Under the pieces are notes generated by a model. It searched no databases, was not told where the DNA came from, and worked only from the letters and a program-made list of their open reading frames with translations. The position numbers were made by a program, and so were the translations under genes. A stretch of 64,000 nt of DNA, from positions 57,683 through 121,682 of the IMG/VR virus record IMGVR_UViG_3300022555_002641; one strand, 5' to 3'. Positions 41,437-63,693 of this stretch are shown here, in pieces. Within the stretch, counting starts at the first letter, position 1, and the number at the start of each line of letters is the position of its first letter. Origin of the DNA: a virus.

Positions 41437-41532
41437 TTTTTTCGGAAGTGGGTGCTGATTTTTCAGCACCCACAACCAAACCAATCTTACCAATTAAACC
41501 AATCAATTAGTATTAACTTAAATTTAACAAAC

Positions 41533-43458
41533 ATGAACACAACTCCGAATGCAAATGCAAATCCTACCAAGGTAGGTCTGTGGGCTGGAATGCAGCCTAA
41601 GCTGAAATCAAGAATCAAGTACACCTTTTTGGCTATTCTGTTCCTCGGTGGACTCTATGTAGCCTACACTCAGGGGTGGATTCCAGGTCTGAAATCAGAC
41701 AAATCGAAGGAAGTTGCCAAATTTAGCTCTGACAACTCAGGGCTTAACACCAACACCGAAGCCACCAAACTGGCTGTGCCAAAAGTACAGGATGCAGAAT
41801 TTGCAACCATGGACAATATCAAGGAAACACGTTTGATCAACTATATCTGGGCTGGTAACCTCGGAATGGGTGCTGCTAATGACGGCCCGCAGACCATGAA
41901 AGGTTCACTTATGGAACAGTTCGGTGTTAAGCTGCACATGATCACCAATAACTCCAATCAGTTTATGAAAGACCAGTTGCTGGCATTTATTCAGGCATAT
42001 GCAAAGGGTGATAAAAATCCGTCAGTTGGTGCACCGCTTATTACTGTAATGGGTGATGGTAATCCAGCACTTTTCTCGGTCATGAATAAAAACATTGTCA
42101 AAACATTTGGCGAAGAATACAGACTGAAAGCTGTTGGGGTAATCGGATTTTCAATGGGTGAAGACTGCCTGATGGGTCCTGCCGCATGGCTTACCACACC
42201 ATCTCTTATGAGGGGTGCCATTATTTCAGGTGTCATCGGTGATGGTGACTGGGGGCTTGGTGTACGTTTTCTTGCAGATATTTCAGATGAAAAAGGTAAC
42301 CGTATTCCTGTAAATCCAGATCCTTCAACCTACGACCCGAATGCCCTTAACTTCGTACCAGCTCCTAATGACGATTTCATGGAAGCTGCCAATGATGTTA
42401 TTACTGGTAAACCAGCAAAAGACCTCAAAATAAAAGATTCCAAAGGTAAACTTACTGGCAAGACTATCACCCGCAAAATTGATGGATGCGTAACATGGTT
42501 TCCTGGTGACCGCAACGTGGTAAAAAATCTCAACCTTGTTAAGATTATCAGCACCAAGCAGTACCCGAACCAGATGGGAACAACTATCGTAGGCTGTGAT
42601 AAATGGATGAAAGAAAACTCCAAGACTATGGTCGGATTGCTTTCTGCTACATACGTTGCCTGTAACCAGATTAAAAATTATGATGAATGGTTCCGTTATG
42701 CATGCGAAGTTGCTCCTAAAATTTTCTATCCTGGATCGGTCTCCCCAGATATTTCTGCCGATGACTGGTATCGTTATGCCAAAGCTGGTGGTGCCGAAAT
42801 GAAAAATACTGATGGAACTTCTGTTCTGGTTGGCGGAACTCAGATGGCAAACCTTGCAGACGCAAAGAAGTATTATGGTCTTACTGGAGGAAACGACTAT
42901 TACAAAGCCGTATACGAATACTTTGCTCAGGTTATTAAAGACCTTAACCCATGCGACATTATGGGTCAGGCTAAGACACTTACTGCATATGAAGATGTTG
43001 TTGACCCGACATATCTGAAACAGGTTGCCATCGGTGGAGAATCTGGAAAAGTTGCTCCTATTGATTATTCTAAAAACACTGGTCACCAGTTTGCCAAGAA
43101 AATCTGGCACGTTGAATTCGAAGTGGGCTCAGCTAATCTTACTGGAGCATCCAAAGTTGAACTCAAAAAACTGTATGATGCCCTTAAAAACTGGAACGAA
43201 GGTGCTGTATGTAATATTGTTGGACACACTGACAATACTGGGAAACCTGATGGCCCAGGCGGTAATGTGGACTTATCAGTAGAAAGGGCACGTTCTGTTA
43301 AGAATTATCTTATCAACCTGTCAGGTGGTACATTTCCATCAGAACGGTTCCATGTTGACGGAAAAGGACAAACCAGTCCAATTGATCCAAATGCTAACCA
43401 GAACTCACAAGCCGCACGTAAAGCAAACCGTAGGGTTGAAATCAGTCTCTCCGAATAA
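41533..43458 (+). CDS. Membrane-anchored ABC substrate-binding-like domain fused to C-terminal OmpA-like peptidoglycan-binding domain
   Basis: TM near the N-terminus; C-terminal GHTDNTG...LSVERARSV...G.G...P...NRRVEI. Confidence 0.85.
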   Translation: MNTTPNANANPTKVGLWAGMQPKLKSRIKYTFLAILFLGGLYVAYTQGWIPGLKSDKSKEVAKFSSDNSGLNTNTEATKLAVPKVQDAEFATMDNIKETRLINYIWAGNLGMGAANDGPQTMKGSLMEQFGVKLHMITNNSNQFMKDQLLAFIQAYAKGDKNPSVGAPLITVMGDGNPALFSVMNKNIVKTFGEEYRLKAVGVIGFSMGEDCLMGPAAWLTTPSLMRGAIISGVIGDGDWGLGVRFLADISDEKGNRIPVNPDPSTYDPNALNFVPAPNDDFMEAANDVITGKPAKDLKIKDSKGKLTGKTITRKIDGCVTWFPGDRNVVKNLNLVKIISTKQYPNQMGTTIVGCDKWMKENSKTMVGLLSATYVACNQIKNYDEWFRYACEVAPKIFYPGSVSPDISADDWYRYAKAGGAEMKNTDGTSVLVGGTQMANLADAKKYYGLTGGNDYYKAVYEYFAQVIKDLNPCDIMGQAKTLTAYEDVVDPTYLKQVAIGGESGKVAPIDYSKNTGHQFAKKIWHVEFEVGSANLTGASKVELKKLYDALKNWNEGAVCNIVGHTDNTGKPDGPGGNVDLSVERARSVKNYLINLSGGTFPSERFHVDGKGQTSPIDPNANQNSQAARKANRRVEISLSE

Positions 43459-43469
43459 ACTTTCGAATT

Positions 43470-43505
43470 AGAAAGAGGGGGTAACCCACCCCCTCTTTCT
43501 TTTTT
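43470..43505 (+). terminator. Internal hairpin/terminator
   Basis: AGAAAGAGGGG...CCCCTCTTTCT-TTTTT. Confidence 0.7.
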
Positions 43506-43575
43506 ATCTTACCATCAATTATACACCAATCTAATTGCTGGAGCAATCAATTAATTCCACTTAAAAATAGCAAAC

Positions 43576-44385
43576 ATGAACACTATAACAAATTATATGT
43601 CCCCTGCGTGGATATTACTAAAGAGGCTTTTTACACCTTTCGAAGTAATTGATAAAAAGGTTCTGAACACCGTTGCATTTTTACAAGTTATGCTTTTACT
43701 GTATGCTTGGTTTGCGTGGGTTCCAGAAAAATCGTTTTTTCCCAGCCTCGGAGCAGTCCTTGAAGGTTGGTTTGAAATGTGGAACAAAGGTTTATTTTTT
43801 CACATTCTTCAAACATTAAAATTATGCGGTACCGCAACTGTTATCAGTATCTTCTTTTCCTGTTTAGTTGCATATTCATCCAAAATACCGTTTTTCGAAT
43901 TTATTGCCAACTTAGCCACGAAATTTCGTTACAATCCAATCCAAGGATTCACGTTATTTCTAACCACAATGACAGGCGGTGGTAGATCATTACAGATTAC
44001 AATACTTGTTATCTTTATGAGTTTTTATTTCATCACCGCTTTGATGTCAATTATTAATGACATTCCGCCAGATGACTACGACCGCAGAAAAGCTCAGGGT
44101 ATGAGTCGCTGGAAAATTTTGTGGAAAGTCGTTATTCTTGATCGTTTAGATTACTTGCTTGAAGTTATTAGGCAAAACCTTAGTATCACCTTTATGATGA
44201 TTGTTTCTGTCGAAGCTATGAACAAAGAAGGTGGTGGGCTTGGTGCCATGCTCGTTGATACGAACAGAGGTCTTAATTTTCCAAATATTTTTGCCCTTCA
44301 GTTAACAATCCTTTGTATTGGAATTCTTCTTGACACCATTTTAAAAATGTTCTTTCACCAGTTCCCTGCAAACGCTAAACGATAA
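43576..44385 (+). CDS. ABC transporter permease (SsuC/TauC-like)
   Basis: Multiple TMs, EAA-like loop AQGMSRW, GGLG. Confidence 0.8.
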   Translation: MNTITNYMSPAWILLKRLFTPFEVIDKKVLNTVAFLQVMLLLYAWFAWVPEKSFFPSLGAVLEGWFEMWNKGLFFHILQTLKLCGTATVISIFFSCLVAYSSKIPFFEFIANLATKFRYNPIQGFTLFLTTMTGGGRSLQITILVIFMSFYFITALMSIINDIPPDDYDRRKAQGMSRWKILWKVVILDRLDYLLEVIRQNLSITFMMIVSVEAMNKEGGGLGAMLVDTNRGLNFPNIFALQLTILCIGILLDTILKMFFHQFPANAKR

Positions 44386-44390
44386 TTCAT

Positions 44391-45269
44391 ATGATACACG
44401 CACATCCATATAATATTGTAAGACCCCTTATTCAAGCTAATAACGTGTCTTTCTCCGTAAATTCCAACGGATCAAAAAAAATCCTTCTACGGGATATTGG
44501 AACAGAAAAAATGCCATTTCTTATCAATGATATTACTCGCCCAGATGTTACAAATACTGGTCAAACTATTGCAGTTGTTGGTCGATCAGGTGGCGGGAAA
44601 TCAACATTGTTCAGAATGCTTGCTGGTTTAGCAAAACCGACAACAGGTCAAATATTAATCCCTAAACACACGAGGGACCATGATGAACTCGATAAATTAG
44701 TTGAAGTTCAGGAAGGATCGGTTGGATTTGTTCAGCAGAACTATCCACTATCCCGAAACCAGTCAGTTCAAGGGATGCTTTGGGATGCTGCTGTTCAGGG
44801 TAATATTCCTCGTCATGAACGAATGGGTGTTATCGAAAACTACCTTGAAGAGTGGGGATTAAAAGATCAGAGAACTCAGTCCAGAAATCAGCTTTCTGGT
44901 GGTCAGCGTCAACGTCTTGCTATTATGGAGCAATTACTTTGTTCACATCATTTCATTATCTTTGATGAGCCTTTCAGTGGGCTTGACCCAAAGAATGTTG
45001 ATGGATTGAAGAAAGTCTTTAACCAGATTGTAACAGTTGACGAAATCAACACAATCTTATTCAGTACACATGATCTGCACCTTGCTGTTGAATTAGCCGA
45101 CCAAATTTTTGTCATCGGATATGAAAAGGATGATCAAGGAAATTATTTGGCTGGTGGTACAGTAATCAAAGAATATGATCTCAAAACTATGGGGTTGGCT
45201 TGGAACCCTTACGGGGATCAACACCAAGAGCTCAAAGAAGAAATAAAACTTTTAATTGAAACAAATTAG
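44391..45269 (+). CDS. ABC transporter ATP-binding protein
   Basis: GRSGGGKST, LSGGQRQR, FDEPFSGLD, THD. Confidence 0.93.
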   Translation: MIHAHPYNIVRPLIQANNVSFSVNSNGSKKILLRDIGTEKMPFLINDITRPDVTNTGQTIAVVGRSGGGKSTLFRMLAGLAKPTTGQILIPKHTRDHDELDKLVEVQEGSVGFVQQNYPLSRNQSVQGMLWDAAVQGNIPRHERMGVIENYLEEWGLKDQRTQSRNQLSGGQRQRLAIMEQLLCSHHFIIFDEPFSGLDPKNVDGLKKVFNQIVTVDEINTILFSTHDLHLAVELADQIFVIGYEKDDQGNYLAGGTVIKEYDLKTMGLAWNPYGDQHQELKEEIKLLIETN

Positions 45270-45292
45270 TATAAACCTAAATTTATAAAAAT

Positions 45293-45493
45293 ATGAAAAC
45301 ACGATTTATTGTTTGGGCTATAGTACTCTTCGTACTGTTTGCCTTCGGATTTATCTGGCTTATAAACCATGCTTTTGTAGTGATGACATTCGCAACCATC
45401 TTTAAGATTGCTGGGGCATTCATTATCTCTACTGTTATATCTTATTGGATCGGATATATGAGGGGGCATCACAACGCATCCACGAAGGTTTAA
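45293..45493 (+). CDS. Small membrane protein
   Basis: Two TM helices. Confidence 0.65.
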   Translation: MKTRFIVWAIVLFVLFAFGFIWLINHAFVVMTFATIFKIAGAFIISTVISYWIGYMRGHHNASTKV

Positions 45494-45601
45494 AACACCA
45501 GTTTAATGATCATGTTTGCTTAATTGATTGGTTTAAGCAAGGTAGTTCTCCGCCCCGAAAGGGGCGGGGATTACCGAAATTAAGCCACAAAAATATAAAG
45601 A

Positions 45602-45838
45602 ATGAAAAAATTATTGGATAAAGTGTGGTTCAATATGATCGCACTTGGAATTTATGTTCTTGTTATCCCAATGCTCATGGCTTGGGGTATATTTTCATTA
45701 CTACGGCTGATAACAGGAACCCAATTAAATGATTATGGAACAACTGGGATTCTTTTTCAATTTGCAATTTTTGTATCATATGTTATCATCTTTGCGTTTT
45801 TCAAAAAAATTTTTAAAGAACGGAGTGACTTAGCATGA
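45602..45838 (+). CDS. Small membrane protein
   Basis: Two TM helices. Confidence 0.65.
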   Translation: MKKLLDKVWFNMIALGIYVLVIPMLMAWGIFSLLRLITGTQLNDYGTTGILFQFAIFVSYVIIFAFFKKIFKERSDLA

Positions 45839-45920
45839 TAATAGTTAATTCAATATTAGTGCTTATTATTTTTGTTTGCATTTGTGCTTTGCCAAGTGCA
45901 ATACGTAAAGACCTCAGGCG

Positions 45921-46220
45921 ATGACTTTAAAAGAATTTAAGACCGCATTTTCTATAAGATTCAAATTATTTTTCATGCTTTACGTATTGGGCATGCTTGG
46001 ACTTTTCGTATATACGTTAATAGTACCAATCGAAAGAAAAAATTACAAAATTCAATTATATCAAAAATACTATGGTGATCAAACTCTTGTCGGAACATAT
46101 TTCACCAATGATACAATAAACACTATTGCGAGACTTTCAACCGAATATCCAAAAACCACATATAACATTGTGGTGACCAAAAATATAAAAGTTAATTCAA
46201 ATCAATCAATTATTCACTAA
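45921..46220 (+). CDS. Membrane-anchored hypothetical protein
   Basis: One TM helix. Confidence 0.6.
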   Translation: MTLKEFKTAFSIRFKLFFMLYVLGMLGLFVYTLIVPIERKNYKIQLYQKYYGDQTLVGTYFTNDTINTIARLSTEYPKTTYNIVVTKNIKVNSNQSIIH

Positions 46221-46232
46221 ATTTTTAAAACT

Positions 46233-46727
46233 ATGGGAGCACTATTAGCATTAACACTTTTCGGCACCTTTTGGGGTGCATTGATCGGCATTGTCTTATT
46301 TCTGATTATCTGCTGGCTTGCGGATATTTATGAAAATGGATTTTTTGCCACGGCAGCCTTAATTGTAATATGTGTATTATTTTATTACAAAGGCGCAAAT
46401 TTCGCACCGTTTATGTTCATTATATCATGGACATTTGCTGGAACTTATCTCGGCATCGGGTTGGTTTATTCTGTTATCAGGGTATTCTTTGAAGGTCGTA
46501 AACTTGGTAAAAAAATTCAGGATTTACCAAAGGGAAATACATCCCAGAAAGATTACGTCATCGATAAGCTTAGCGGTAATGTATCACGTTGGTGGTTCAT
46601 GTGGCCCATCAGCCTTATCAACTGGGTCTTAACCGATCTTCTGCGTGACTTCTGGGATTATGTCTATTCCAAAATGGGCAATTTCTACAGGAAGGTTCTT
46701 GAACTTGGTATCAAATCCGTAAAATAA
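46233..46727 (+). CDS. Membrane protein
   Basis: Multiple TMs, WWFMWP motif. Confidence 0.7.
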   Translation: MGALLALTLFGTFWGALIGIVLFLIICWLADIYENGFFATAALIVICVLFYYKGANFAPFMFIISWTFAGTYLGIGLVYSVIRVFFEGRKLGKKIQDLPKGNTSQKDYVIDKLSGNVSRWWFMWPISLINWVLTDLLRDFWDYVYSKMGNFYRKVLELGIKSVK

Positions 46728-46734
46728 TCCAGAA

Positions 46735-47064
46735 ATGAAAAAACTATTTATTTTATTTATTATCGGCTTACTTACATCATTTCTTACCAGTTGTGGTAAT
46801 GATAATGAAGATAAAGTAAAATCCATTAACAAGGATGGCGCAATTTCAGTTCAATTATCAGTAAAACACCTTGCAGATAAAGATGTACTGATTTCTGAAT
46901 ATGAAATTTGGAACAAAAATAACCTTGTTAAAAAATATGCAATCTATGATACCGTGCCAAATTTGGGGATGGTTAAATCAGAAATTGATTCAACTGATGC
47001 CAATGAAAATGCAGTTTCAGTTATGGTTCCTAAAGATTATGAATTTTACGTAACACTAAAATAA
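46735..47064 (+). CDS. Lipoprotein
   Basis: FLTSC lipobox. Confidence 0.7.
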   Translation: MKKLFILFIIGLLTSFLTSCGNDNEDKVKSINKDGAISVQLSVKHLADKDVLISEYEIWNKNNLVKKYAIYDTVPNLGMVKSEIDSTDANENAVSVMVPKDYEFYVTLK

Positions 47065-47071
47065 TCATAAG

Positions 47072-47404
47072 ATGAAAAAACCTAACATGAAAACTAAAGT
47101 TATTACTTTGGTGTTGGTTTGTGCAGCCCTTGCTTGTTGCAATAAATCAAAACAACCATATGAAAAACAGCAAACTCTTCACTTAAGAAGTGATACGACT
47201 GCTGAATATTCATATGTACGCCCATATGGTATGTGGTGGTATGCATTCAGACCCTATGGGGTTTATTCTCATGGTCGTTATTCCAGAGGAGGTTTTTATT
47301 CTGCGTCAATTCATGAGTCATCTAATATTGGGCATAGTGCTGGAAAGAGCGCAGCCGTAAGAGGTGGGTTCGGTGGTCGTGGAAGTTTTGGTGTTTCATC
47401 TTAA
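47072..47404 (+). CDS. YgiB/DUF1190-like lipoprotein
   Basis: LACC lipobox, C-terminal VRGGFG; directly precedes a YgiC-like gene. Confidence 0.65.
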   Translation: MKKPNMKTKVITLVLVCAALACCNKSKQPYEKQQTLHLRSDTTAEYSYVRPYGMWWYAFRPYGVYSHGRYSRGGFYSASIHESSNIGHSAGKSAAVRGGFGGRGSFGVSS

Positions 47405-47415
47405 AAATAAAAATT

Positions 47416-48588
47416 ATGCAAAGAATCGTTATATCACCTCGTAAAGATTGGCAAAAAAAAGTTGAGGAAATAGGATTTGGATTTCATACAGCCGATACCC
47501 CATATTGGAATGAAGGTGCCATGTATAAATTTACAATGAACGAAGTCCTCGAAATTGAAAAAGCAACTGGAGAACTTTGGGATATGTGCCTTGGTGCTGT
47601 CCAATATGTCATGGACAATGATCTGTATGATAAGTTTTGTATCCCCAAATGGATAATCCCCCATATTGAAAAATCATGGGAAAATGATAGCCCAGCAATC
47701 TACGGAAGATTTGATTTTTTGCTTAAAGATGGCGTTCCAAAAATGCTTGAATTTAATGCTGATACACCAACATCACTTTTTGAAGGCGGTGTTGTACAAT
47801 GGTACTGGCTTCAGGATTTCGATAAGTCAAAAGATCAATTCAATTCAATTCATGAAAAATTGATTGCTTATTGGAAATATCTTAAACCATATCTGCAACA
47901 TTCTTTGGCAGTGAAACCACATCCGTTATACTTTACGTGTCTTAAGGAAACTCTTGAGGACCTTACAACTACAGAATACTTGCGGGATTGTGCTATTCAG
48001 GCTGGATTGGAAACCAAATTAATCTATATCGATGATATTGGTTGGAACGAAAAGAAAAAGGTTTTCGTTGATCTTGAAAATAATGAAATTTTCAATATTT
48101 TCAAACTCTATCCTTGGGAATTTCTGGTCACTGAAGATTTCGGTAAGCATATTATTGAAGATAAAAATGCAGCATTTTGGATTGAACCAAGTTGGAAAAT
48201 GATTTTATCCAACAAAGCAATTCTTCCAATTTTATGGGAACTTTATTCTGAATGCCCATATTTACTTCCATCTCATTTCGATGAATCTTATCATGTTGAT
48301 TACGTTAAAAAACCAATCCTTTCAAGGGAAGGTGCGAATATTTTAATTGTAAAAGATGGTAAGCAGATTCTTAAAACCGAAGGTCAGTATGCTGAAGGAA
48401 ATGCCGAATTTAACCAAGAGGCTTATATTTATCAGGAGTTTTGCGAAGTTCCAAGCTTTGATGGCAATACTCCAGTGATTGGTAGCTGGGTTATCGGGCA
48501 GCAAGCAGCGGGTATGGGAATACGTGAAACTGCAACTATAGTCACTGACAATTTTAGCAGATTTGTCCCACATATAATTGAAGATTAA
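47416..48588 (+). CDS. Glutathionylspermidine-synthase-like ATP-grasp ligase (YgiC/YjfC family)
   Basis: YW.E, YGRFD, EFNADTPTSL.E, FKLYPWE, EP.WK.ILSNKA, KP.LSREGAN, IGSW, SRFVPH. Confidence 0.93.
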   Translation: MQRIVISPRKDWQKKVEEIGFGFHTADTPYWNEGAMYKFTMNEVLEIEKATGELWDMCLGAVQYVMDNDLYDKFCIPKWIIPHIEKSWENDSPAIYGRFDFLLKDGVPKMLEFNADTPTSLFEGGVVQWYWLQDFDKSKDQFNSIHEKLIAYWKYLKPYLQHSLAVKPHPLYFTCLKETLEDLTTTEYLRDCAIQAGLETKLIYIDDIGWNEKKKVFVDLENNEIFNIFKLYPWEFLVTEDFGKHIIEDKNAAFWIEPSWKMILSNKAILPILWELYSECPYLLPSHFDESYHVDYVKKPILSREGANILIVKDGKQILKTEGQYAEGNAEFNQEAYIYQEFCEVPSFDGNTPVIGSWVIGQQAAGMGIRETATIVTDNFSRFVPHIIED

Positions 48589-50894: not shown

Positions 50895-51064
50895 TTTTTA
50901 TAAATTTATTCCAAAATAAATTAAACAAATTAAAAAGAATTAACTATATTTGCAATATGAAAAATCGTCCATCTATAAGTTGCCCTACCGAAGAAGTCCC
51001 TTGGCTTGTTGAAAGCCTTGTTCAACATATTAATAAGTTAAACCAAAACCTAAACCCTGTTTAT

Positions 51065-52009
51065 ATGAAAAAGAATTCTCTTACCCCAAACGCTGGTCTT
51101 AGCCTTTCACAGGCTCAATCAATTTCAAATCTTTGCCATCAGAGGGCATTGGAAATTGAAAACAAATTGAGTGGTATTAACAACTACAGCAAATCTGTTG
51201 ATATTGCCAGTAAAAAAGAAACTACAACACATGTGATTGTTGTTGGTAAGCCTATTCCATCGGATGTTGTTGCACTGCTTACAGAAAAAGCGACACTTCA
51301 TGCATGTCAGGGATTCTTGATGGAGAATATCAAAGCAAAGGAAGCATCACTCAACGAAAACAAACGGGCAACCGCTGACATTTCATCAGTTGTTCTTCCT
51401 GAAAGAATTACCCCAAAGACTCCAGAACAGCTTCCACAGGTTAATGAGGATTTCGGCTGGTCACAGCTCAGTGTTGCTGACCTTAACGAATTCATCGAAG
51501 CAGATGCTTTCGCAGCCCACATTGGGCAATTTATTCACAAAGAAGGTACTCTCAATGCTTTGAGGAAAGAATTACCAACAGTGGCTCCAATCGAATGGAT
51601 GACAATTAAAGATGGTGAAAAATCACCAGTAAAGGTTGTGACCCATCACACTTCAGACCAGCTTCTTAAAGTTCATGAAGAATTGGCTGGATTACATCGT
51701 GAGCGTGAACAGCGTGTAAATTACTTCAAGGCAAAGGTGAAGAACCTTACCACAGAAGAAAATGCACGTATCGCTAAAGTTAACGCTGATGCACAGCATG
51801 ATGCTCAGAAGTTCAACAATGATCAACAGGCTGCTTATGAAACTGCATTTAAAGCATCCCAGGAACAGATCAGAACCATTCAGGCTGAGTTTGAAAAAGA
51901 ACGTCAGTCCAAAGTCAAAGATATTGCAGCAATGCGTATTAACGTAGATGCTCGTTTCAAGAAAGTTATTGACCAGTTTATGGGTCAGCTTTCAGATAAA
52001 CAAGAATAA
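51065..52009 (+). CDS. Long helical/coiled-coil protein upstream of a structured RNA
   Basis: MKKNSLTPNAGLSLSQAQSISNLCHQRA...; extended C-terminal heptads; start could be 50957. Confidence 0.8.
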   Translation: MKKNSLTPNAGLSLSQAQSISNLCHQRALEIENKLSGINNYSKSVDIASKKETTTHVIVVGKPIPSDVVALLTEKATLHACQGFLMENIKAKEASLNENKRATADISSVVLPERITPKTPEQLPQVNEDFGWSQLSVADLNEFIEADAFAAHIGQFIHKEGTLNALRKELPTVAPIEWMTIKDGEKSPVKVVTHHTSDQLLKVHEELAGLHREREQRVNYFKAKVKNLTTEENARIAKVNADAQHDAQKFNNDQQAAYETAFKASQEQIRTIQAEFEKERQSKVKDIAAMRINVDARFKKVIDQFMGQLSDKQE

Positions 52010-52022
52010 AATGAGGTGAATC

Positions 52023-52336
52023 GTAGGCAAAGCATGAGCTGAGCCTACTTTTCTTTGTGCTTGGTGATAAGTTCTTTGATATATTCAACTAAGTTTAGAC
52101 AACTTATCTAATGTGCCTTAGGGCGCATTTGTTAAAAAGGATTACACCGCCTTTTCTACAACTTAAAGTTTTTTGTGGGATTTTCTCAAAATGACCACAT
52201 GTAGAGTAAGTTACCCTTAAATGTGGATAATTACCTACGAAACAAAACTTTGATTTTGTCTTTGCCCTTGTAGTAGAAAAGGGTCTTTGACCTTGGCGTT
52301 GACTTAAACTTTAACTATACAGCTTATCACCAAGCG
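52023..52336 (+). ncRNA. Candidate structured non-coding RNA
   Basis: Nested helices 52059-71/52323-35 (13 bp perfect), 52091-103/52298-311, 52150-59/52273-82, 52165-79/52234-51, 52195-200/52221-26, plus hairpins 52023-48 and 52110-29. Confidence 0.7.
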
Positions 52337-52369
52337 ACTTATTTTTTAAAACAAAAAACAATTAAAACT

Positions 52370-52558
52370 ATGAAAAAATTACATTTATCAAAAAACAAAA
52401 TTGTAGGTGGCGTTTGTGGCGGAGTTGCCGAATCATTAAATGTTGATCAAAGTATCGTCAGAGTAGTTTGGGGATTAGCTGCACTCGCTTGGGGTGTTGG
52501 AATTCTCGCATACGTAGTTTGCTGGATTGTGTTTCCAGAAGATACCGAAGCGGAATGA
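52370..52558 (+). CDS. PspC-domain protein
   Basis: KIVGGVCGGVAE...VR...AY..WI.FP. Confidence 0.85.
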   Translation: MKKLHLSKNKIVGGVCGGVAESLNVDQSIVRVVWGLAALAWGVGILAYVVCWIVFPEDTEAE

Positions 52559-54179: not shown

Positions 54180-54380
54180 TTATATCAACTCAACATTAAC
54201 TGCATTTAAACCTTTCTTTCCTTCAATTACTTCAAATTTTACTTCGTCATTCTCGGTTATCGTATCGATAAGCCCTGTGGCGTGTACAAAATATTCAGTG
54301 CCTGAATCCCCGTCTTTAATAAATCCAAATCCTTTCGCAGAATTATAGAATTTAACGGTACCTTTGATTGTGTTACTCAT
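54180..54380 (-). CDS. Cold-shock protein
   Basis: GTVKFYN..KGFGFI (RNP1), FVH (RNP2), G..AVNV. Confidence 0.95.
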   Translation of the reverse strand: MSNTIKGTVKFYNSAKGFGFIKDGDSGTEYFVHATGLIDTITENDEVKFEVIEGKKGLNAVNVELI

Positions 54381-57088: not shown

Positions 57089-58624
57089 TTATTTCATTTC
57101 CGAACATGTGATCGGTGCTATAGGTTCTATGGCACCGATTATTGCTTTATAGCCATCCTTCCAAATTTCAGGATCAGTAGTTCTTGAAATTGCATTAAAA
57201 GTTTCCATAGCCGCAGCTACAATTGTATTAAACTTATAAGTCCTTTCGTAAACATCAATAGTCTTCTTCCTGATCATGTCAATTCTATTTCTTGCCCAAT
57301 CTTCATCCTTCTGATTAGGAACATGAACTATATCACCGATTTTCTGATAGCCAGCTTTGAATTTATTTATAAATCTACTGCAACCAGATATATTTGAATC
57401 GATCCATTCGAAATCCTGTTCAGGTGGGCCAGCAAACATGATGTACATTCTCACAACATCTGCACCATATTTTTCAACCATCTCATCAGGTGACACCCCA
57501 TTACCAAAATTCTTGGACATTTTTCTACCATCCTTCTTCACCATGCCCTGACAAATTACACGTTTAAACGGCTCGACTGGAGCATCCTCAGGAATATATC
57601 CCATTTTTTTGAACATTCTCCAGAAAAATCTTGCGTAAATCATGTGCCCTGTTGCATGCTCAGCACCGCCAATGTAATAATCAATCGGGAACCAATGTTT
57701 TATTTTATCCCAATCAAATCTGGTACCATCGAAATCTGAAATGTAACGAATGAAATACCAACTGGATTGTACAAAAGTATCCATGGTATCGGTTTCCTTT
57801 TCAGCATTTCCACCACAAACTGGGCACTTAATAAACTTCCATGTTGGATGATTCGCCATTGGATTTCCGCATCCATCGAATTTAACGTTTTCAGGGGCTA
57901 TAACGGGGGTTTGCTCGTTGGGTATGCAACCGCACCTTGGACAGTTGATCATCGGTATAGGAGTCCCCCAATAGCGTTGACGTGAAATACACCAGTCTGA
58001 GAATGGACGCACTTCATCTTTTTCACGAATTCCATTTTTTATGAACTGTTTTTGCTGCTTTGTGATTACTTCAGCCCAGTCACCTTCAATATCTTTTATG
58101 GAGTCATACATATCATCAGCAAACATTGTAGTTTTGAAATAATATTGCACCATTTCTTTCTGCTCAATCTTTGCACCAGATCGCCATCCTTTACCATCAA
58201 TTACTTGATTGGCTGCCATCACGGTCTGATCTACGGGGTCCCAATTCACCATCCCGATCTTCTTCTCAATAAATCCAGCTTTCCAAGCATCAATAAAAAA
58301 TCTTTGCTCATGCTGCCAGTAACTTACATCACAAGTCGAAATTTCACGATCCCAATCAAAATCCATAGCCATAGCTTTCATTTGTGTTCGCATATGGGCG
58401 ATGTTGGCATTTGTCCAATCCCTTGGATGAACATTGTTCTTGATCGCTGCGTTTTCCCCAGGCATGCCGTATGAATCCCAGCCTATTGGGTGGCATACAT
58501 CAAATCCTTTATTTCGCCAGTATCTGGAAATTGAGTCCGATATGGTGTAATTCCGCATGTGCCCCATGTGAATACTTCCAGATGGGTAAGGAGCCATTGG
58601 TGTCACCATTACATTGTTTTTCAT
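57089..58624 (-). CDS. leuS: Minimal leucyl-tRNA synthetase (no CP1 editing domain, no C-terminal domain, zero Leu residues)
   Basis: MAPYPSG, HMGH, GWDSYGMPGENAA, DWCISRQRYWG, ETDTMDTFVQSSWY, GGAEHA..H..YARF, KMSK. Confidence 0.92.
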   Translation of the reverse strand: MKNNVMVTPMAPYPSGSIHMGHMRNYTISDSISRYWRNKGFDVCHPIGWDSYGMPGENAAIKNNVHPRDWTNANIAHMRTQMKAMAMDFDWDREISTCDVSYWQHEQRFFIDAWKAGFIEKKIGMVNWDPVDQTVMAANQVIDGKGWRSGAKIEQKEMVQYYFKTTMFADDMYDSIKDIEGDWAEVITKQQKQFIKNGIREKDEVRPFSDWCISRQRYWGTPIPMINCPRCGCIPNEQTPVIAPENVKFDGCGNPMANHPTWKFIKCPVCGGNAEKETDTMDTFVQSSWYFIRYISDFDGTRFDWDKIKHWFPIDYYIGGAEHATGHMIYARFFWRMFKKMGYIPEDAPVEPFKRVICQGMVKKDGRKMSKNFGNGVSPDEMVEKYGADVVRMYIMFAGPPEQDFEWIDSNISGCSRFINKFKAGYQKIGDIVHVPNQKDEDWARNRIDMIRKKTIDVYERTYKFNTIVAAAMETFNAISRTTDPEIWKDGYKAIIGAIEPIAPITCSEMK

Positions 58625-58646
58625 AACTATCTATTTTTTAAGTTAG

Positions 58647-58719
58647 TAGCCTCGGTGGGATTCGAACCCACGAAATTATGGTCCTAAGCCATACGGATAT
58701 ACCACTCTCCTACGAAGCC
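58647..58719 (-). tRNA. tRNA-Leu(UAG), short variable loop (type I)
   Basis: GGCTTCG/CGAGGCT-A73; anticodon arm TATGG CTTAGGA CCATA; variable ATTTC; T arm GTGGG TTCGAAT CCCAC. Confidence 0.88.
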
Positions 58720-58732
58720 ATTTTTCATATCG

Positions 58733-58817
58733 TGCCCAAGACAGAACTCGAATCTGCATGCTCTTTCAAGCACAACGGTCTGAACGTTGCGGGTCTAACC
58801 AATTTCCCCACTTGGGC
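58733..58817 (-). tRNA. tRNA-Leu(CAG), long variable arm
   Basis: GCCCAAG/CTTGGGC-A; CAACG TTCAGAC CGTTG; variable stem TGCTT GAAA GAGCA. Confidence 0.9.
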
Positions 58818-59559
58818 GTTGTTTTTTTGGCGGAATACCGCCATAACTTTTGATCCATTTTTTTATTGCGTTATCACTAACACCATATTTCTTGCCAGTT
58901 GATAAGTAACTTGTATCATTTACTTCTTTTAAAAGTATTTCCAATGATGGTCTATCTTTAATTTTTCTTTGATTTATTTTATCACATTCATAACATCTAT
59001 TTGATTTTTTTTGAATTTCTTTGCCGCATTCACAAAAGTTATTTTTTGATTTAATATATTTAGTATATTTTTTCTTTCGTAACTCAGATATGCTACTTTT
59101 TATTTTAGAATTGCAATACGTTACAGTTTGACTATGGCAATTTGGACATAAAATTTTCAAATTGGTTATTCTATTGTCTAAATTATCACCATTAATATGA
59201 TCTAAATGTAAAGTTAATGGTTTTCCATTCCATTCATGTATTCCACAATTTTCGCATATATTTTTTTTTAAATTTTTTTCTATTAATTTTCTTCTTAAGC
59301 CTGAGGTGTTTGAATATGTAGAATTCTTTACTAAAATTTCATCAAGATTACATTTTCTCCCAAAATTTTTAAATCTCTTTCCACAATTCCAACCTTGACC
59401 TGTAAAATGTGAAATATCTATTTCATATAATTTAATATATTTCTTTACAGTTTTATAATTTCCACCAATTGGTCTTACATTTAATTTTCTACAAACGTCA
59501 GCTATTGACAACGATGTTTTAGTTATTTCTTCTAAATTGCTTTTCTCATAATTTTTCAT
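58795..59559 (-). CDS. HNH homing endonuclease inserted in the tRNA cluster
   Basis: CENCG...LHLDHINGD..DNRITNL.ILCPNCHSQT; C-terminal HTH-like; stop lies inside tRNA-Leu(CAG). Confidence 0.9.
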   Translation of the reverse strand: MKNYEKSNLEEITKTSLSIADVCRKLNVRPIGGNYKTVKKYIKLYEIDISHFTGQGWNCGKRFKNFGRKCNLDEILVKNSTYSNTSGLRRKLIEKNLKKNICENCGIHEWNGKPLTLHLDHINGDNLDNRITNLKILCPNCHSQTVTYCNSKIKSSISELRKKKYTKYIKSKNNFCECGKEIQKKSNRCYECDKINQRKIKDRPSLEILLKEVNDTSYLSTGKKYGVSDNAIKKWIKSYGGIPPKKQRPSGEIG

Positions 59560-59633
59560 ATTAAACTTTTTTTTGTATATATAAAAGTTTAATAGTCGAA
59601 AAAATAAATTTCAAGCAACTCTTAAAATTTTTG

Positions 59634-59718
59634 TGGTCGAGGAGGGAGTCGAACCCTCATGGCTCTTAACCAACAGGCTCTCAACCTGTTGCGTTCTTAC
59701 CAATTTCGCCACTCGACC
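59634..59718 (-). tRNA. tRNA-Leu(GAG), long variable arm
   Basis: GGTCGAG/CTCGACC-A; ACAGG TTGAGAG CCTGT; T arm GAGGG TTCGACT CCCTC. Confidence 0.9.
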
Positions 59719-59728
59719 TTTTTATTTG

Positions 59729-59802
59729 TACTCCCACACGGACTCGAACCGAGATATAATCTGTTTAAGAGATTAATGACTAACCAATTGCATCATGGGA
59801 GC
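59729..59802 (-). tRNA. tRNA-Leu(UAA), short variable loop (type I)
   Basis: GCTCCCA/TGGGAGT-A; AATCT CTTAAAC AGATT; variable ATAT; T arm CTCGG TTCGAGT CCGTG (one mismatch). Confidence 0.82.
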
Positions 59803-59810
59803 AATTTTTG

Positions 59811-59892
59811 TGCCGCTGAACGGACTCGAACCGATACATCTTCCGATATGAGTTTCTTAGGCTCACGTGGCTACCAATTACACCACAGCGGC
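59811..59892 (-). tRNA. tRNA-Leu(AAG), long variable arm
   Basis: GCCGCTG/CAGCGGC-A; TGAGC CTAAGAA ACTCA (C31.A39 mismatch); variable TATC GGAA GATG. Confidence 0.82.
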
Positions 59893-59898
59893 AATTTG

Positions 59899-59970
59899 TA
59901 CTCTCACTCAGACTCGAACTGAGACACCATCCTTTTGAGGGATGTACGACTACCATTACGTCATGAGAGC
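59899..59970 (-). tRNA. tRNA-Leu(CAA), short variable loop (type I)
   Basis: GCTCTCA/TGAGAGT-A; CATCC CTCAAAA GGATG; variable GTGT; T arm CTCAG TTCGAGT CTGAG. Confidence 0.88.
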
Positions 59971-59978
59971 AAAAAATG

Positions 59979-60064
59979 TAGCGAGTGTGGGGGTCGAACC
60001 CACAAGAGCACAGAGGCTCACGGACTTTTAAGGACCGCATGTTTGCCAGTTTCATCAACTCGCC
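59979..60064 (-). tRNA. tRNA-Leu(UAA), long variable arm
   Basis: GGCGAGT/ACTCGCT-A; CGGTC CTTAAAA GTCCG; variable GAGC...GCTC; T arm GTGGG TTCGACC CCCAC. Confidence 0.88.
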
Positions 60065-61898: not shown

Positions 61899-62102
61899 TC
61901 ATGATTTAAATATTTTGTTTAATTTATTTTTTCGTTCTTCTTTTAATTTTTCACACCACGGTGGGGCGGGGGATTTTTTGGTTCGTAATGCATAAGTTCC
62001 AACAAATTTTTCTCTACAATATAATTCAAATGTCCAGTCGCCATTTGGAGTAATCCGTTCACTCGGTACCCAACTATGCAATTTACATTTTTCGCAATCC
62101 AT
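61899..62102 (-). CDS. Small Cys-rich protein
   Basis: CxxC...C...PPWC; tag ERKNKLNKI. Confidence 0.65.
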   Translation of the reverse strand: MDCEKCKLHSWVPSERITPNGDWTFELYCREKFVGTYALRTKKSPAPPWCEKLKEERKNKLNKIFKS

Positions 62103-63654
62103 TGATTCTTGTATATTGTTGTAATCGTGAAACAAATTCATCCCTACCAATAATTTCTGCGATATCAGTTACGTGCGGCCCTCGATTGGCTCCAACTACA
62201 AGTAATCTCAATGGTGCCAATAACCTACCAGACTGCATATTAGCAGTGGCAAGAAAATTATCGATAAAAGATTGTAGTGATTCTTTATTGAATTCTTTCA
62301 ATGTTGTAAGTTGACTCAAAAACAAACTGATTACAAACCCACTATCCATCTTCCAAATTTTATCGATCATTTCTTGTTCATATGTTTGTGGAGAAAAGAA
62401 GAAGAAATCAGATTCTTTCCATAAGTCTGGTAGCAGTACAACTCTTTCACGAATAAGATGAACTATTTTCAAAAGGAATTCATTTTCATCAGTTGGTGAA
62501 TTGAAAGGTGTAAGAGTATTAATAGCCATCCCATGTTCGCCAATACATCCATGATCGCCTAATTGCCCAGATAAATAATAAGCTAATTCCTCATCGGTTT
62601 TATTAAGAAGATGTTTTTGATTAAACCATAACGCTTTCTTTGGATCGAATCGGCAATCAGCCTTAACAATACGATCTAATGAGAAAATATCGATAAGTTC
62701 TTGCATGGTGTATAATTCCTGAGTTGTTCCAGAATTCCATCCAAGCAGCGCAAGTGTATTAACTACAGCTTCTGGAAGATATCCTCGTTCTGAGCAACCC
62801 AAATATTTTTCACCAGTTTGCGGATCAATCCATGGGAGCATGTACGCTGGGAATCCAAATTTTTCACCATCCCTTTTATTGAATTTCCCCTGACCTTCGG
62901 GTTTAAGAATCAATGGAAGATGTGCGAAAACAGGATGTTCCCACCCCATAAGTTTATAAAGTAAAATATGAATTGGGGTTGATGGTAACCATTCATTTCC
63001 ACGTATTACATGAGAAATTTGCATCAAATGATCATCAACAATATTTGCAAAATGATATGTTGGAAACCCGTCAGATTTATATAGGATTTTATCGTCCAAC
63101 GTTGAAGAATTCCATGATACTTCCCCTGCGATTTCATCAGTGAATGTAATTATTTCATTTTCTGGAACTTTAAGACGAAATACACAATCGGCACCACTTT
63201 CAATAAGTTTATCAACTTCTTTTTGAGATAATGTCAAACTGTTTTTGAATTGCATTCGGTTGGCTGCCGAATATTTGAAATGCTCATTTTCTTCACGAAG
63301 CTTAGCTAATTCTTTTGGGGTATCGAATGCAATATAAGCACCACCCTTCTTATAGAGTTCCAAGATATTACTTGTGTACCAAACGCCTCGTTCCGATTGC
63401 CTGTACGGCCCGTATGCACCCTTACCGATAGCAGGGCTTTCATCAAATTTTATTCCAACCCAATTCAAAGAATCGATTATATATTTTTCGGCATTAGGCA
63501 CCAATCTTTCCTGATCAGTATCTTCAATTCTCAAAATGATATCACCACCATTCTTTTTAGCAAAAAGGTAGTTGAACAGGGCTGTTCTAACTCCACCAAT
63601 GTGAAGCGGTCCTGTTGGGCTTGGGGCGAATCTTACTCGTACTTTATTAATCAT
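62083..63654 (-). CDS. gltX: Glutamyl-tRNA synthetase
   Basis: VRVRFAPSPTGPLHIGG, RIEDTD, GPYRQSER, PTYHFANIVDDH, HVIRG.EW, KFNKR (KMSKS-like). Confidence 0.96.
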   Translation of the reverse strand: MINKVRVRFAPSPTGPLHIGGVRTALFNYLFAKKNGGDIILRIEDTDQERLVPNAEKYIIDSLNWVGIKFDESPAIGKGAYGPYRQSERGVWYTSNILELYKKGGAYIAFDTPKELAKLREENEHFKYSAANRMQFKNSLTLSQKEVDKLIESGADCVFRLKVPENEIITFTDEIAGEVSWNSSTLDDKILYKSDGFPTYHFANIVDDHLMQISHVIRGNEWLPSTPIHILLYKLMGWEHPVFAHLPLILKPEGQGKFNKRDGEKFGFPAYMLPWIDPQTGEKYLGCSERGYLPEAVVNTLALLGWNSGTTQELYTMQELIDIFSLDRIVKADCRFDPKKALWFNQKHLLNKTDEELAYYLSGQLGDHGCIGEHGMAINTLTPFNSPTDENEFLLKIVHLIRERVVLLPDLWKESDFFFFSPQTYEQEMIDKIWKMDSGFVISLFLSQLTTLKEFNKESLQSFIDNFLATANMQSGRLLAPLRLLVVGANRGPHVTDIAEIIGRDEFVSRLQQYTRINGLRKM

Positions 63655-63693
63655 CTTCTCCAACACTTGAAAAAATTACTATTCCACCCATAA

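Follow-up and report, generated by a model that had tools for sequence, protein, structure and literature searches.

What is the sequence that begins directly behind the gene of a 314-aa protein in this viral DNA, and do the two belong together? The whole stretch of 64,000 nucleotides that was analysed is called the window here. On its + strand, positions 52012-52347 hold a structured non-coding RNA that was previously undescribed, and the parts of this element and the gene are collected in Table 1. The element begins 3 nt past the stop codon, is about 330 nt long in the window (the range given for the RNA is 200-340 nt) and has a single copy in the 121,682-base virus record. We conclude that a new RNA family is coupled here with a protein family that is likewise new: since the folded RNA and the gene are kept together in many phages, they look like a new RNA-protein pair.

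Table 1. Gene and RNA element in the window, with the observations on each feature.
Feature	Position	Strand	Observations
Gene of the 314-aa protein	51065-52009	+	Stop codon 52007-52009; N-terminus from 51065 conserved in 16 homologs
P1ext, 5' strand	52012-52015	+	4-bp helix with 52338-52341; 93.3% paired; 3/4 pairs changed on both sides
Invariant G and U after P1ext 5' strand	52016-52017	+	
P0 5' hairpin, then conserved UUU	52018-52053	+	Compensatory changes in 10/10 and 2/2 pairs; top MI pairs
P0 core stem	52023-52028 / 52043-52048	+	
P0 inner 2-bp stem with 4-nt loop cap	52032-52033 / 52038-52039	+	
P1, 5' strand	52058-52073	+	Holds the 13-mer 52059-52071; compensatory changes in 16/16 pairs; 88.2% paired
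Variable region, lineage-specific hairpins	52074-52149	+	Poorly alignable; hairpin of the window at 52111-52128
P3, 5' strand, pyrimidine-rich	52150-52159	+	Compensatory changes in 9/9 pairs; 100% and 92.2% paired
P4 hairpin of the window's subclade	52174-52199	+	Stem 52174-52178 / 52195-52199 covaries in the subclade (by eye)
P5 hairpin domain	52200-52239	+	Internal sequence highly conserved; compensatory changes in 7/8 pairs; 95.1% paired
Hexamer run A, four NNNUUG units	52247-52270	+	Nearly invariant, unpaired
P3, 3' strand, purine-rich	52273-52282	+	As for P3, 5' strand
Hexamer run B, about six units	52284-52319	+	6-nt register; ends with conserved CUAU
P1, 3' strand	52322-52336	+	Holds the 13-mer 52323-52335; same helix as P1, 5' strand
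Invariant A-C junction, P1ext 3' strand (52338-52341) and U-tract (52342-52347)	52337-52347	+	Terminator-like 3' end

The earlier note had read a perfect 13-bp closing helix from the single sequence. This helix was found, with its arms 251 nt apart, and it grows into the P1 helix of Table 1 when the wobble pairs are included. When a 286-nt stretch was compared with its shuffles, the z value was -4.95 on the + strand and -5.80 on the - strand, and 0 of 200 shuffles were as good on either strand. Among 56 distinct relatives, 91.6% of the cells are paired compared with 71.6% in shuffles (0/500 shuffles equal), and the covariation score is 0.627, against 0.11-0.17 with slid partners. Covariation downstream of the protein homologs, proposed beforehand as a check, is strong: 49 of the 60 pairs carry compensatory changes in these relatives, an independent MI ranking yields the same helices, and a second clade has compensatory changes in 24/64 pairs with the architecture unchanged. 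Three further nested long-range helices had also been read inside the closing helix. One of them, P3, is conserved and is present as well in clade 2 and in the loci L243 and L280, but the others belong to the single-sequence fold and were dropped, being without compensatory changes. The outer stem of P5 in the window is 52200-52204 / 52235-52239, where by our own reading the MAFFT alignment is one column off. In most members outside the window's subclade, a short conserved hairpin takes the place of P4, with a weakly supported consensus (79.4% paired). The hairpins of the variable region differ between relatives, and several of them have UUCG- or GAAA-type loop caps, as judged by eye.

An extent of about 310 nt had been proposed; the element is real but longer, as the 4-bp P1ext helix, the P0 hairpin on the 5' side and the U-tract have to be added. 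Column pair 13/493 of P1ext ranks among the top MI pairs, and distant clades have a hairpin at the position equivalent to P0. Across 52 supported pairs in the 56 sequences, 203 cells are G.U or U.G and 55 are A.C or C.A. This excess favours the + strand, so that the G.U bias seen in the single sequence is borne out at the family level; the U-tract that follows P1 also lies on the + strand. The element is not coding, with the longest ORFs ranging from 19 to 88 codons and being inconsistent among the 56 members. At the 3' end, the P1/P1ext stem is followed by six U, as in an intrinsic terminator. Nevertheless, 250 nt of conserved structure lie inside this stem, which a simple terminator scanner did not call, and therefore we apply the word terminator to the 3' end only. 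Some relatives have, in place of this end, a tRNA-like gene or a separate terminator hairpin; clade 2, for example, has a tRNA-like gene downstream in place of the U-tract.

The 6-nt periodicity noted in the 3' half is real and conserved family-wide. It consists of 4 plus about 6 NNNUUG hexamers, in runs A and B respectively, with the 3' strand of P3 between the two runs. Both are U-rich, with a GUCUUUG-like recurring unit. The register of the hexamers is conserved and free of indels, in run A across all 56 sequences. In run B the UUG conservation fades toward the 3' end; run B recurs in distant clades. No MI partner for the hexamer runs was found in the 56-sequence alignment, and helices that RNAalifold placed inside runs A and B were rejected, as no compensatory change accompanies them. 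Hexamers that are conserved without covariation-supported pairing fit a repeated single-strand binding site, for which the earlier note had proposed an oligomer of the upstream protein as a putative ligand. We considered whether the UUG hexamers are connected with the LeuRS and the seven tRNA-Leu genes of the window, but dropped this idea, because the tRNAs that flank related loci are of many isotypes and those of the window are 6 kb from the pair, on the opposite strand.

The coupling of the RNA to the gene was counted in both directions. RNA copies were collected by an RNA-only pattern, and the count takes the full-length copies with upstream DNA. A protein homolog gene lies upstream of the RNA in 56/56 copies, and in a metagenome scan the same holds for 23/23 full-length copies. 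Conversely, all 23 loci found via the protein (23/23) carry the RNA downstream. We set aside 14 short nhmmer matches from the metagenome scan (16-30 bits, model positions about 215-310), none of which has the protein nearby; they span little beyond the searched pattern and hence match by construction. Among the other ORFs that neighbour the pair in the window, 0 of 14 recur in any related locus, compared with 83 loci for the protein. The architecture is shared by three distant lineages, with a protein identity of roughly 25-30%; P1, P3 and the two hexamer runs are all retained in L243, in L280 and in L244 together with its clade. The spacing between gene and RNA is at most 16 nt in 51/56 loci. 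In at least 6 loci the two are separated by 195-1482 nt or by at least one ORF, and so the RNA need not physically adjoin the stop codon of that gene. No promoter-like site was found between gene and RNA, and co-transcription alone could maintain an RNA that lacks a promoter and follows an expressed gene. The undescribed protein-ncRNA pair suggested by the earlier note thus stands as a conserved genetic pair.

The pair occurs in many uncultured phages, including freshwater giant phages and gut phages of about 95-100 kb. tRNA or tmRNA genes lie within about 3 kb in 39/55 loci, and all 153 of these genes are co-oriented with the pair, which may just reflect the general gene orientation of such regions. 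In the complete relative PQ006092.1, the pair is the first part of a replication-gene block. Enrichment of a host-type promoter motif was seen upstream of the element. The deposited phage collection gave no match at the DNA level; its search with the protein gave one weak match, which led to L243. The genome collection contributed 5 MAG contigs only, which resemble binned phage DNA and indicate no host. The sequence is also present in RNA libraries. Two freshwater metatranscriptomes of one study contain whole contigs identical to the window, at 52071-52326 (256 nt) and 52020-52334 (315 nt), and a peat metatranscriptome of another study contains a 173-nt contig at 52151-52322 with 2 differences and 1 gap; such contigs cannot give strand, ends or level, and the libraries may contain DNA. 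In the RNA libraries X12, X13 and X18, most of the protein gene and the gene downstream are uncovered, which does not count as evidence. A DNA contig (run X8) from the sample that also gave X12 spans 50921-52321, and since it ends at 52321, the 3' boundary is uninformative.

On the protein side, the start at 51065 given by the earlier note is upheld by the conserved N-terminus, and a longer ORF start at 50957 was rejected, since conservation begins at 51065. The protein is without a known family or fold. In the window it matches no Pfam, PHROG or NCBIfam family; against Pfam, NCBIfam and PADLOC it gave 0 families at E<=0.01, and 39 homologs gave scattered weak matches with no family recurring consistently; Pfam Prefoldin_2, for example, was matched by 1/39 homologs (E 0.0035). 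Domain searches recognised no RNA-binding domain, and a CsrA-, Hfq- or TRAP-like domain was likewise not found in this protein. It is near-neutral or acidic rather than basic, with a pI of 5.5-7.7 in 16 homologs. The AF2 model (pLDDT 83) predicts a module of helix, beta-hairpin and long helix that occurs twice. A homodimer prediction scored 0.37 against a mark of 0.42 and is counted neither for nor against binding. Foldseek searches with the full model and with its C-terminal 190 residues returned one uncharacterised viral homolog only and no relative with known function. The topology is like that of prefoldin subunits, and several prefoldin chains are among the weak Foldseek matches, but these matches are insignificant (best E 0.29, TM 0.26-0.59) and give a topological lead, not membership. 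Sequence searches of the PDB gave nothing significant and a search of the ESM Atlas no usable match. The family is large, with 777 representative proteins at E<=0.001 when clustered at 50% identity and 2045 clusters at 90% identity.

The comparison with known RNAs was made through Rfam 15, whose families include tmRNA, RNase P, SRP, 6S, group I/II introns, GOLLD, ROOL, OLE, raiA, HEARO, Y RNA-like and others. At the gathering threshold the whole window yielded 7 tRNAs only, and 51950-52420 yielded 0 matches at E<=10; ten related loci yielded tRNAs and tmRNAs only, outside the element. The earlier view that this is not a tRNA, tmRNA, SRP RNA, RNase P RNA or intron, and that no RT is adjacent, agrees with these scans and with the gene content. 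Several known systems resemble the pair in part. Repeat-platform or sponge RNAs include CsrB/RsmZ with GGA, CrcZ with A-rich motifs and the TRAP-binding trp leader with (G/U)AG every 5-6 nt. Like them, the element has many copies of a short unpaired motif at regular spacing, and the spacing of the TRAP target is close to its 6-nt register; unlike them, it repeats a UUG or GUCUUUG-like motif, on the two flanks of one helix in a closed fold, and it has no Rfam homology to them. The omega/reRNA of TnpB/IscB is encoded directly 3' of its partner protein gene. Here too a structured RNA begins at the end of a protein gene and is inherited jointly with it, but the protein is without a RuvC/HNH nuclease domain and without other known domains, and no transposon ends, multiple copies or guide-like variable segment were identified. 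The tRNA gene cluster of phage T4 holds stable RNAs whose function is unknown. These are non-tRNA stable RNA genes inside a phage tRNA array and co-oriented with it, as here; they are smaller than this RNA and are not known to have a partner protein.

No description of this RNA was found in the literature searched. Fremin et al. 2023 (PMC10690425) list 8,495 candidate RNAs without names, 29-151 nt long and drawn from IMG/VR, which may include pieces of this RNA. ROOL and GOLLD, according to PMC12286853, are phage RNAs that often lie near tRNA islands and form RNA-only cages. The element shares with them the phage origin, the elaborate structure and the tRNA-island context. On the other hand, it is smaller (ROOL and GOLLD have about 580 and >800 nt), their Rfam models give no match to it even at E<=10, and it has hexamer arrays and a strictly co-conserved protein gene.

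These observations might fit together as follows. The RNA would be transcribed together with the 314-aa gene, as the last part of one unit, and the transcript would end at the long P1 helix and the U-tract or, in some relatives, at the following tRNA. The fold, closed by P1/P1ext, displays the two single-stranded U-rich tracts beside the 3' strand of P3. We tentatively favour a dedicated RNA whose hexamer tracts serve as a putative multivalent binding platform with a 6-nt register, with the co-encoded protein as the likeliest ligand and both joined in a putative ribonucleoprotein of the phage tRNA/translation island. The near-neutral or acidic pI of the protein and its lack of a recognised RNA-binding domain or fold match count against this role. 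A more specific version is unlikely in our estimate: a helical beta-hairpin protein of unseen fold would assemble per 6 nt on the two tracts of the ~330-nt scaffold RNA, and the result would be a new phage RNP class of tRNA/tmRNA islands acting on host translation, tRNA handling or RNA decay. In a bacterial virus, such a register would be a counterpart to 'one subunit per six bases' packaging.

The tracts could also have another ligand. Known protein-sponge RNAs have a layout of repeated short unpaired motifs, and the element, with about ten short U-rich repeats without covariation-supported pairing, might be a decoy or sponge that captures a host factor with affinity for single-stranded RNA, such as ribosomal protein S1, a cold-shock protein or a nuclease of the RNase E type. 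The hexamers would then be the bait and the upstream protein a co-expressed helper or a source of the promoter, consistent with a protein that is not basic and lacks an RNA-binding domain. The element also sits in a region of the early or host-takeover type, which suits this role: replication genes follow the pair in PQ006092.1 and the host-type promoter motif is enriched upstream. However, no host factor was identified, and a decoy leaves unexplained why the same protein family stands beside 79/79 copies, at roughly 25-30% identity, while the other neighbours change. We thus consider it rather unlikely.

It is improbable that the RNA acts alone in the manner of ROOL and GOLLD, self-assembling or autonomous, with a gene linkage that reflects shared transcription only. 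The element is phage-encoded, highly structured and often in tRNA islands, the context that PMC12286853 reports for those RNAs, but the differences in size, in Rfam models and in the strictly co-conserved protein gene all count against it. We give equally little weight to an untranslated 3' element that acts in cis on the upstream gene, whether by ending transcription, by stopping 3' exonucleases or as an operator through which the protein controls its own mRNA. The short spacing behind the stop codon, the lack of a promoter-like site in between and the resemblance of P1 plus U-tract to a terminator all speak for it. Nevertheless, 330 nt with near-invariant single-stranded tracts exceed the needs of termination or stabilisation, other ORFs intervene in at least 6 loci, clade 2 has a tRNA-like gene and not a U-tract downstream, and whole RNA-library contigs fall inside the element. 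A role at the DNA level, whether as an origin or single-strand initiation signal, as a site of packaging or recombination, or as a miniature inverted-repeat mobile element, could draw on the good folding of both strands, the replication-gene block headed by the pair in one complete relative and the likeness of the hexamer arrays to iteron-like repeats, but is very improbable given the strand-asymmetric wobble pairs, the RNA-type tetraloops seen by eye on the variable hairpins and the presence in RNA libraries, and the mobile element (MITE) in particular was rejected in view of the one copy in 121.7 kb, the fixed place relative to the protein gene and helix arms that covary whereas mobile-element terminal repeats stay identical.

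Few large structured RNAs combine strong covariation with the lack of a known function, and several of these opened new biology. This pair is widespread, as the numbers of clusters in its partner family indicate, and at least one deposited phage genome carries the protein under the mis-annotation 'hypothetical protein'. The dedicated protein gene, which is absent from ROOL and GOLLD, offers an immediate handle for biochemistry. For the tentatively favoured binding platform, the regular hexamer arrays make a precise and testable prediction of stoichiometric binding. Ornate phage RNAs are linked with tRNA islands in a way that has had no explanation, and this element adds a third RNA class to that link.

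The 121,682-base IMG/VR virus record from which this window (57683-121682) is taken has a CheckV completeness of 17% and is therefore a piece of a very large phage. Some of its genes are of cellular type: 41452-48588 encodes a 668-aa OmpA-domain protein, the permease and ATPase of an ABC transporter, and a protein of the glutathionylspermidine-synthase family (PF03738, E 2.8e-142). The 314-aa protein gene and the next gene are separated by 360 nt, and the parts of the RNA found there are listed in the table. A 66-aa ORF at 54180-54380 (-) looks like a cold-shock protein by eye, and in the related loci it is not conserved next to the RNA.

Features of the protein gene, the RNA behind it and the following gene
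Feature	Position	Strand	Remark
314-aa protein gene	51065-52009	+	RNA partner; stop codon 52007-09
P1ext helix	52012-15 / 52338-41	+	
Invariant G, U	52016-17	+	
P0 hairpin	52018-53	+	
P1 helix	52058-73 / 52322-36	+	
Variable region	52074-52149	+	contains hairpin 52111-28
P3 helix	52150-59 / 52273-82	+	pyrimidine strand / purine strand
P4	52174-99	+	
P5	52200-39	+	
Run A	52247-70	+	four NNNUUG units
Run B	52284-52319	+	about six units
U-tract	52342-47	+	
62-aa PspC-domain ORF	52370-52558		next gene after RNA gap

The element is a structured RNA of the + strand whose fold is under selection. The perfect 13-bp helix reported in the earlier note was located at 52059-52071 / 52323-52335, with 251 nt separating the arms, and the fold is much more stable than those of shuffled sequences on either strand (z of -4.95 and -5.80; 0 of 200 shuffles equal). 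Twenty-three viral loci were retrieved by the upstream protein at 46-65% identity, on contigs of up to 373 kb, and all 23 carry recognisably similar sequence downstream of the gene. In the viral collection, 95 stretches matched a 24-nt degenerate pattern derived from the most conserved part of the RNA, and a profile search over 119 loci gave 85 full-length copies, corresponding to 57 distinct sequences. In an alignment of 56 distinct relatives, standard pairs fill 91.6% of the cells compared with 71.6% after shuffling, a value reached by none of 500 shuffles; sliding the partners by 1-3 columns brings the covariation score from 0.627 down to 0.11-0.17; and changes on both sides occur in 49 of the 60 pairs. 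The helices supported are the 4-bp P1ext, the 5' hairpin P0, the long closing P1, the long-range P3 and the hairpin domain P5, and their pairs also rank at the top by structure-blind mutual information. The additional long-range helices in the fold of the single sequence are not conserved.

The earlier note's assignment to the + strand from G.U pairs is borne out, with 203 G.U/U.G cells in the supported helices versus 55 A.C/C.A cells, the latter being the would-be wobble pairs of the opposite strand. A U-tract follows P1 on the + strand, and the variable hairpins of the relatives, as judged by eye, often have UUCG- or GAAA-type loops. No consistent ORF is present in the RNA, the longest having 19-88 codons among the 56 members. 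Contigs identical over their whole length to 52071-52326 (256 nt) and 52020-52334 (315 nt) occur in two freshwater metatranscriptomes, both from one study. A peat metatranscriptome from a different study holds a 173-nt contig that aligns to 52151-52322, with 2 differences and a single gap; in the freshwater libraries, other short contigs cover the conserved core only. These contigs record presence in RNA libraries only; they do not give strand, ends or level, and DNA carry-over is possible.

The 6-nt periodicity noticed in the single sequence extends to all 56, with UUG at every six bases, fading toward the 3' end of run B. Run A is nearly invariant, and neither run contains an indel among these sequences. 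P3 encloses the loop that holds run A, and P1 the loop that holds run B, so the two runs stand at opposite ends of P3 and directly flank its 3' strand. Two small RNAalifold helices inside the runs have no compensatory changes in the same alignment; the RNA has two conserved hexamer-repeat tracts without covariation-supported pairing.

The strongest functional clue is the coupling of the RNA to the protein gene. When viral copies were found by the RNA pattern only, the gene was upstream in all 56 distinct copies with upstream DNA, and in a metagenome scan it was upstream in 23 of 23 full-length copies among the matches listed. The RNA begins no more than 16 nt past the gene end in 51 of the 56 viral copies; intervening DNA of 195-1482 nt occurs in five viral loci and in one locus from the metagenomes. 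Where inspected, this DNA carries ORFs co-oriented with the pair, which are small except for an RHS-repeat ORF in L011 (4014-5420), coding for a 468-aa protein (PF05593, E 3.1e-41). None of the 14 ORFs that flank the pair in the window recurs in related loci, whereas the 314-aa protein recurs in 83. The genetic linkage of the RNA to one protein family is obligate. Together with the lack of any Rfam match in the element (gathering threshold over the whole window, E<=10 over 51950-52420), these counts uphold, at the level of a conserved genetic pair, the proposal of an undescribed protein-ncRNA pair. ARAGORN likewise calls no tRNA or tmRNA inside the element.

The pair is old as well. In four further sources the gene is followed by the same plan: a long helix closes the element, P3 is present, its 3' strand is flanked on each side by U-rich hexamer runs, and a hairpin stands at the 5' end except in L243, where none is evident. 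L243 is a human-gut phage scaffold (MT836666.1) with a protein homolog about 25% identical; L244 is the complete 98.6-kb Bajarodcaudo virus 1 (PQ006092.1), also with a homolog, and 32 of its IMG/VR relatives carry the plan; L280 is a third lineage. Compensatory changes occur in 24 of 64 predicted pairs of the gut clade formed by L244 and its relatives. A 58-aa "hypothetical protein", XHH63432.1, is annotated over part of the structured RNA (PQ006092.1 88046-88222; L244 2418-2594) and is probably not a gene.

Conservation of the 314-aa protein starts at its first residue, and the family is near-neutral (pI 5.5-7.7). It comprises 777 representatives at E<=0.001 and 2045 clusters at 90% identity, labelled "hypothetical" at source apart from two isolated JGI labels. 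Pfam, PHROG and NCBIfam returned no family and PADLOC no consistent one. AlphaFold2 gave a confident model (pLDDT 83, pTM 0.72) with two helix / beta-hairpin / long-helix modules. The sole Foldseek match is an uncharacterised viral homolog, with nothing significant in the PDB; prefoldin chains recurring among the insignificant matches are at most a topological lead from the model.

The pair is frequently set in tRNA islands; by Rfam and ARAGORN, many loci have it inside a tRNA array. tRNA or tmRNA genes occur within about 3 kb in 39 of 55 distinct loci, and all 153 are on the cassette strand. The gut clade has two tRNA-Arg genes, then the tmRNA, the protein gene and the RNA, with an odd tRNA-like gene following the RNA by about 10 nt. 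The tmRNA lies just upstream of the pair in these gut phages of about 95-100 kb (L245 675-1060, L246 677-1056, L249 678-1058, L267 704-1086), with tag peptides ending in AA. The odd ARAGORN calls ("tRNA-???", two-letter anticodon; L246 2658-2727, L257 2653-2722, L266 2648-2717, L012 4283-4353) start about 10 nt past the RNA 3' end or overlap it; they may be false calls, or unusual tRNAs that determine that end through their processing.

The nearest tRNAs in the window are 6 kb from the pair on the opposite strand. Seven genes at 57089-60064 (-), all tRNA-Leu by ARAGORN (tag, cag, gag, taa, aag, caa, taa), cover all six Leu anticodons, three being only 73-75 nt. The adjoining 511-aa protein matches the 843-position bacterial leucine-tRNA ligase model in two stretches (552.2 bits, cutoff 548.4), and together they have the appearance of a shortened LeuRS carried by the phage along with its full tRNA complement. 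The fragment also encodes a 527-aa glutamate-tRNA ligase at 62083-63666 (-) (TIGR00464, 435.7 bits). A 254-aa ORF among the tRNA genes at 58795-59559 (-), overlapping the end of one and with only a weak ZorE-like match (E 0.00075), may not be a real gene. A link of the pair to leucine was rejected because the isotypes of the flanking tRNAs vary.

TAnnTTTG, which we take to be the -7 box of Bacteroidota promoters, occurs within 130 nt upstream of the gene start in 20 of 50 loci versus 7.9% of background windows, and no promoter-like site was found between gene and RNA. The promoter (or tRNAs upstream), the gene, the RNA and the terminator (or a tRNA that follows) would accordingly make up one transcription unit.

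Considered together, the RNA fold, the hexamer tracts, the obligate linkage and the tRNA-island setting suggest a scaffold RNA whose tracts would bind several protein copies at 6-nt spacing, and the co-encoded protein is the best candidate ligand because its linkage is so strict and so old. That this protein binds the RNA and both work as one unit is given somewhat less than an even chance, and roughly half of that share goes to binding at the hexamers in particular. A sponge for a host single-strand RNA-binding factor is rather unlikely; in one concrete form, the hexamers fit the cleavage preference of RNase E (purine, any base, A/U, U, U). An autonomous RNA like ROOL and GOLLD is a poorer prospect. 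These are the closest by context, described in PMC12286853 as phage RNAs that form RNA-only cages, have no known function and often lie close to tRNA islands, but the present RNA, a smaller one with a partner gene, gives no match to their models. The same low probability is assigned to a cis-acting 3' element of the upstream gene. A DNA-level signal or mobile element is very improbable.

Repeat-platform RNAs (CsrB, CrcZ, the TRAP leader) and omega RNAs, the latter coded directly behind a partner gene, resemble the element in layout, although the defining features of each are absent here. Literature searches found no description of this RNA; the catalogue of unnamed 29-151-nt candidate RNAs from IMG/VR in PMC10690425 may include fragments of it. 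We rate the pair as a new RNA family with a new protein family, akin to the ornate phage RNAs of tRNA islands. Should the hexamer-register ribonucleoprotein be real, it could turn out to be categorically new.
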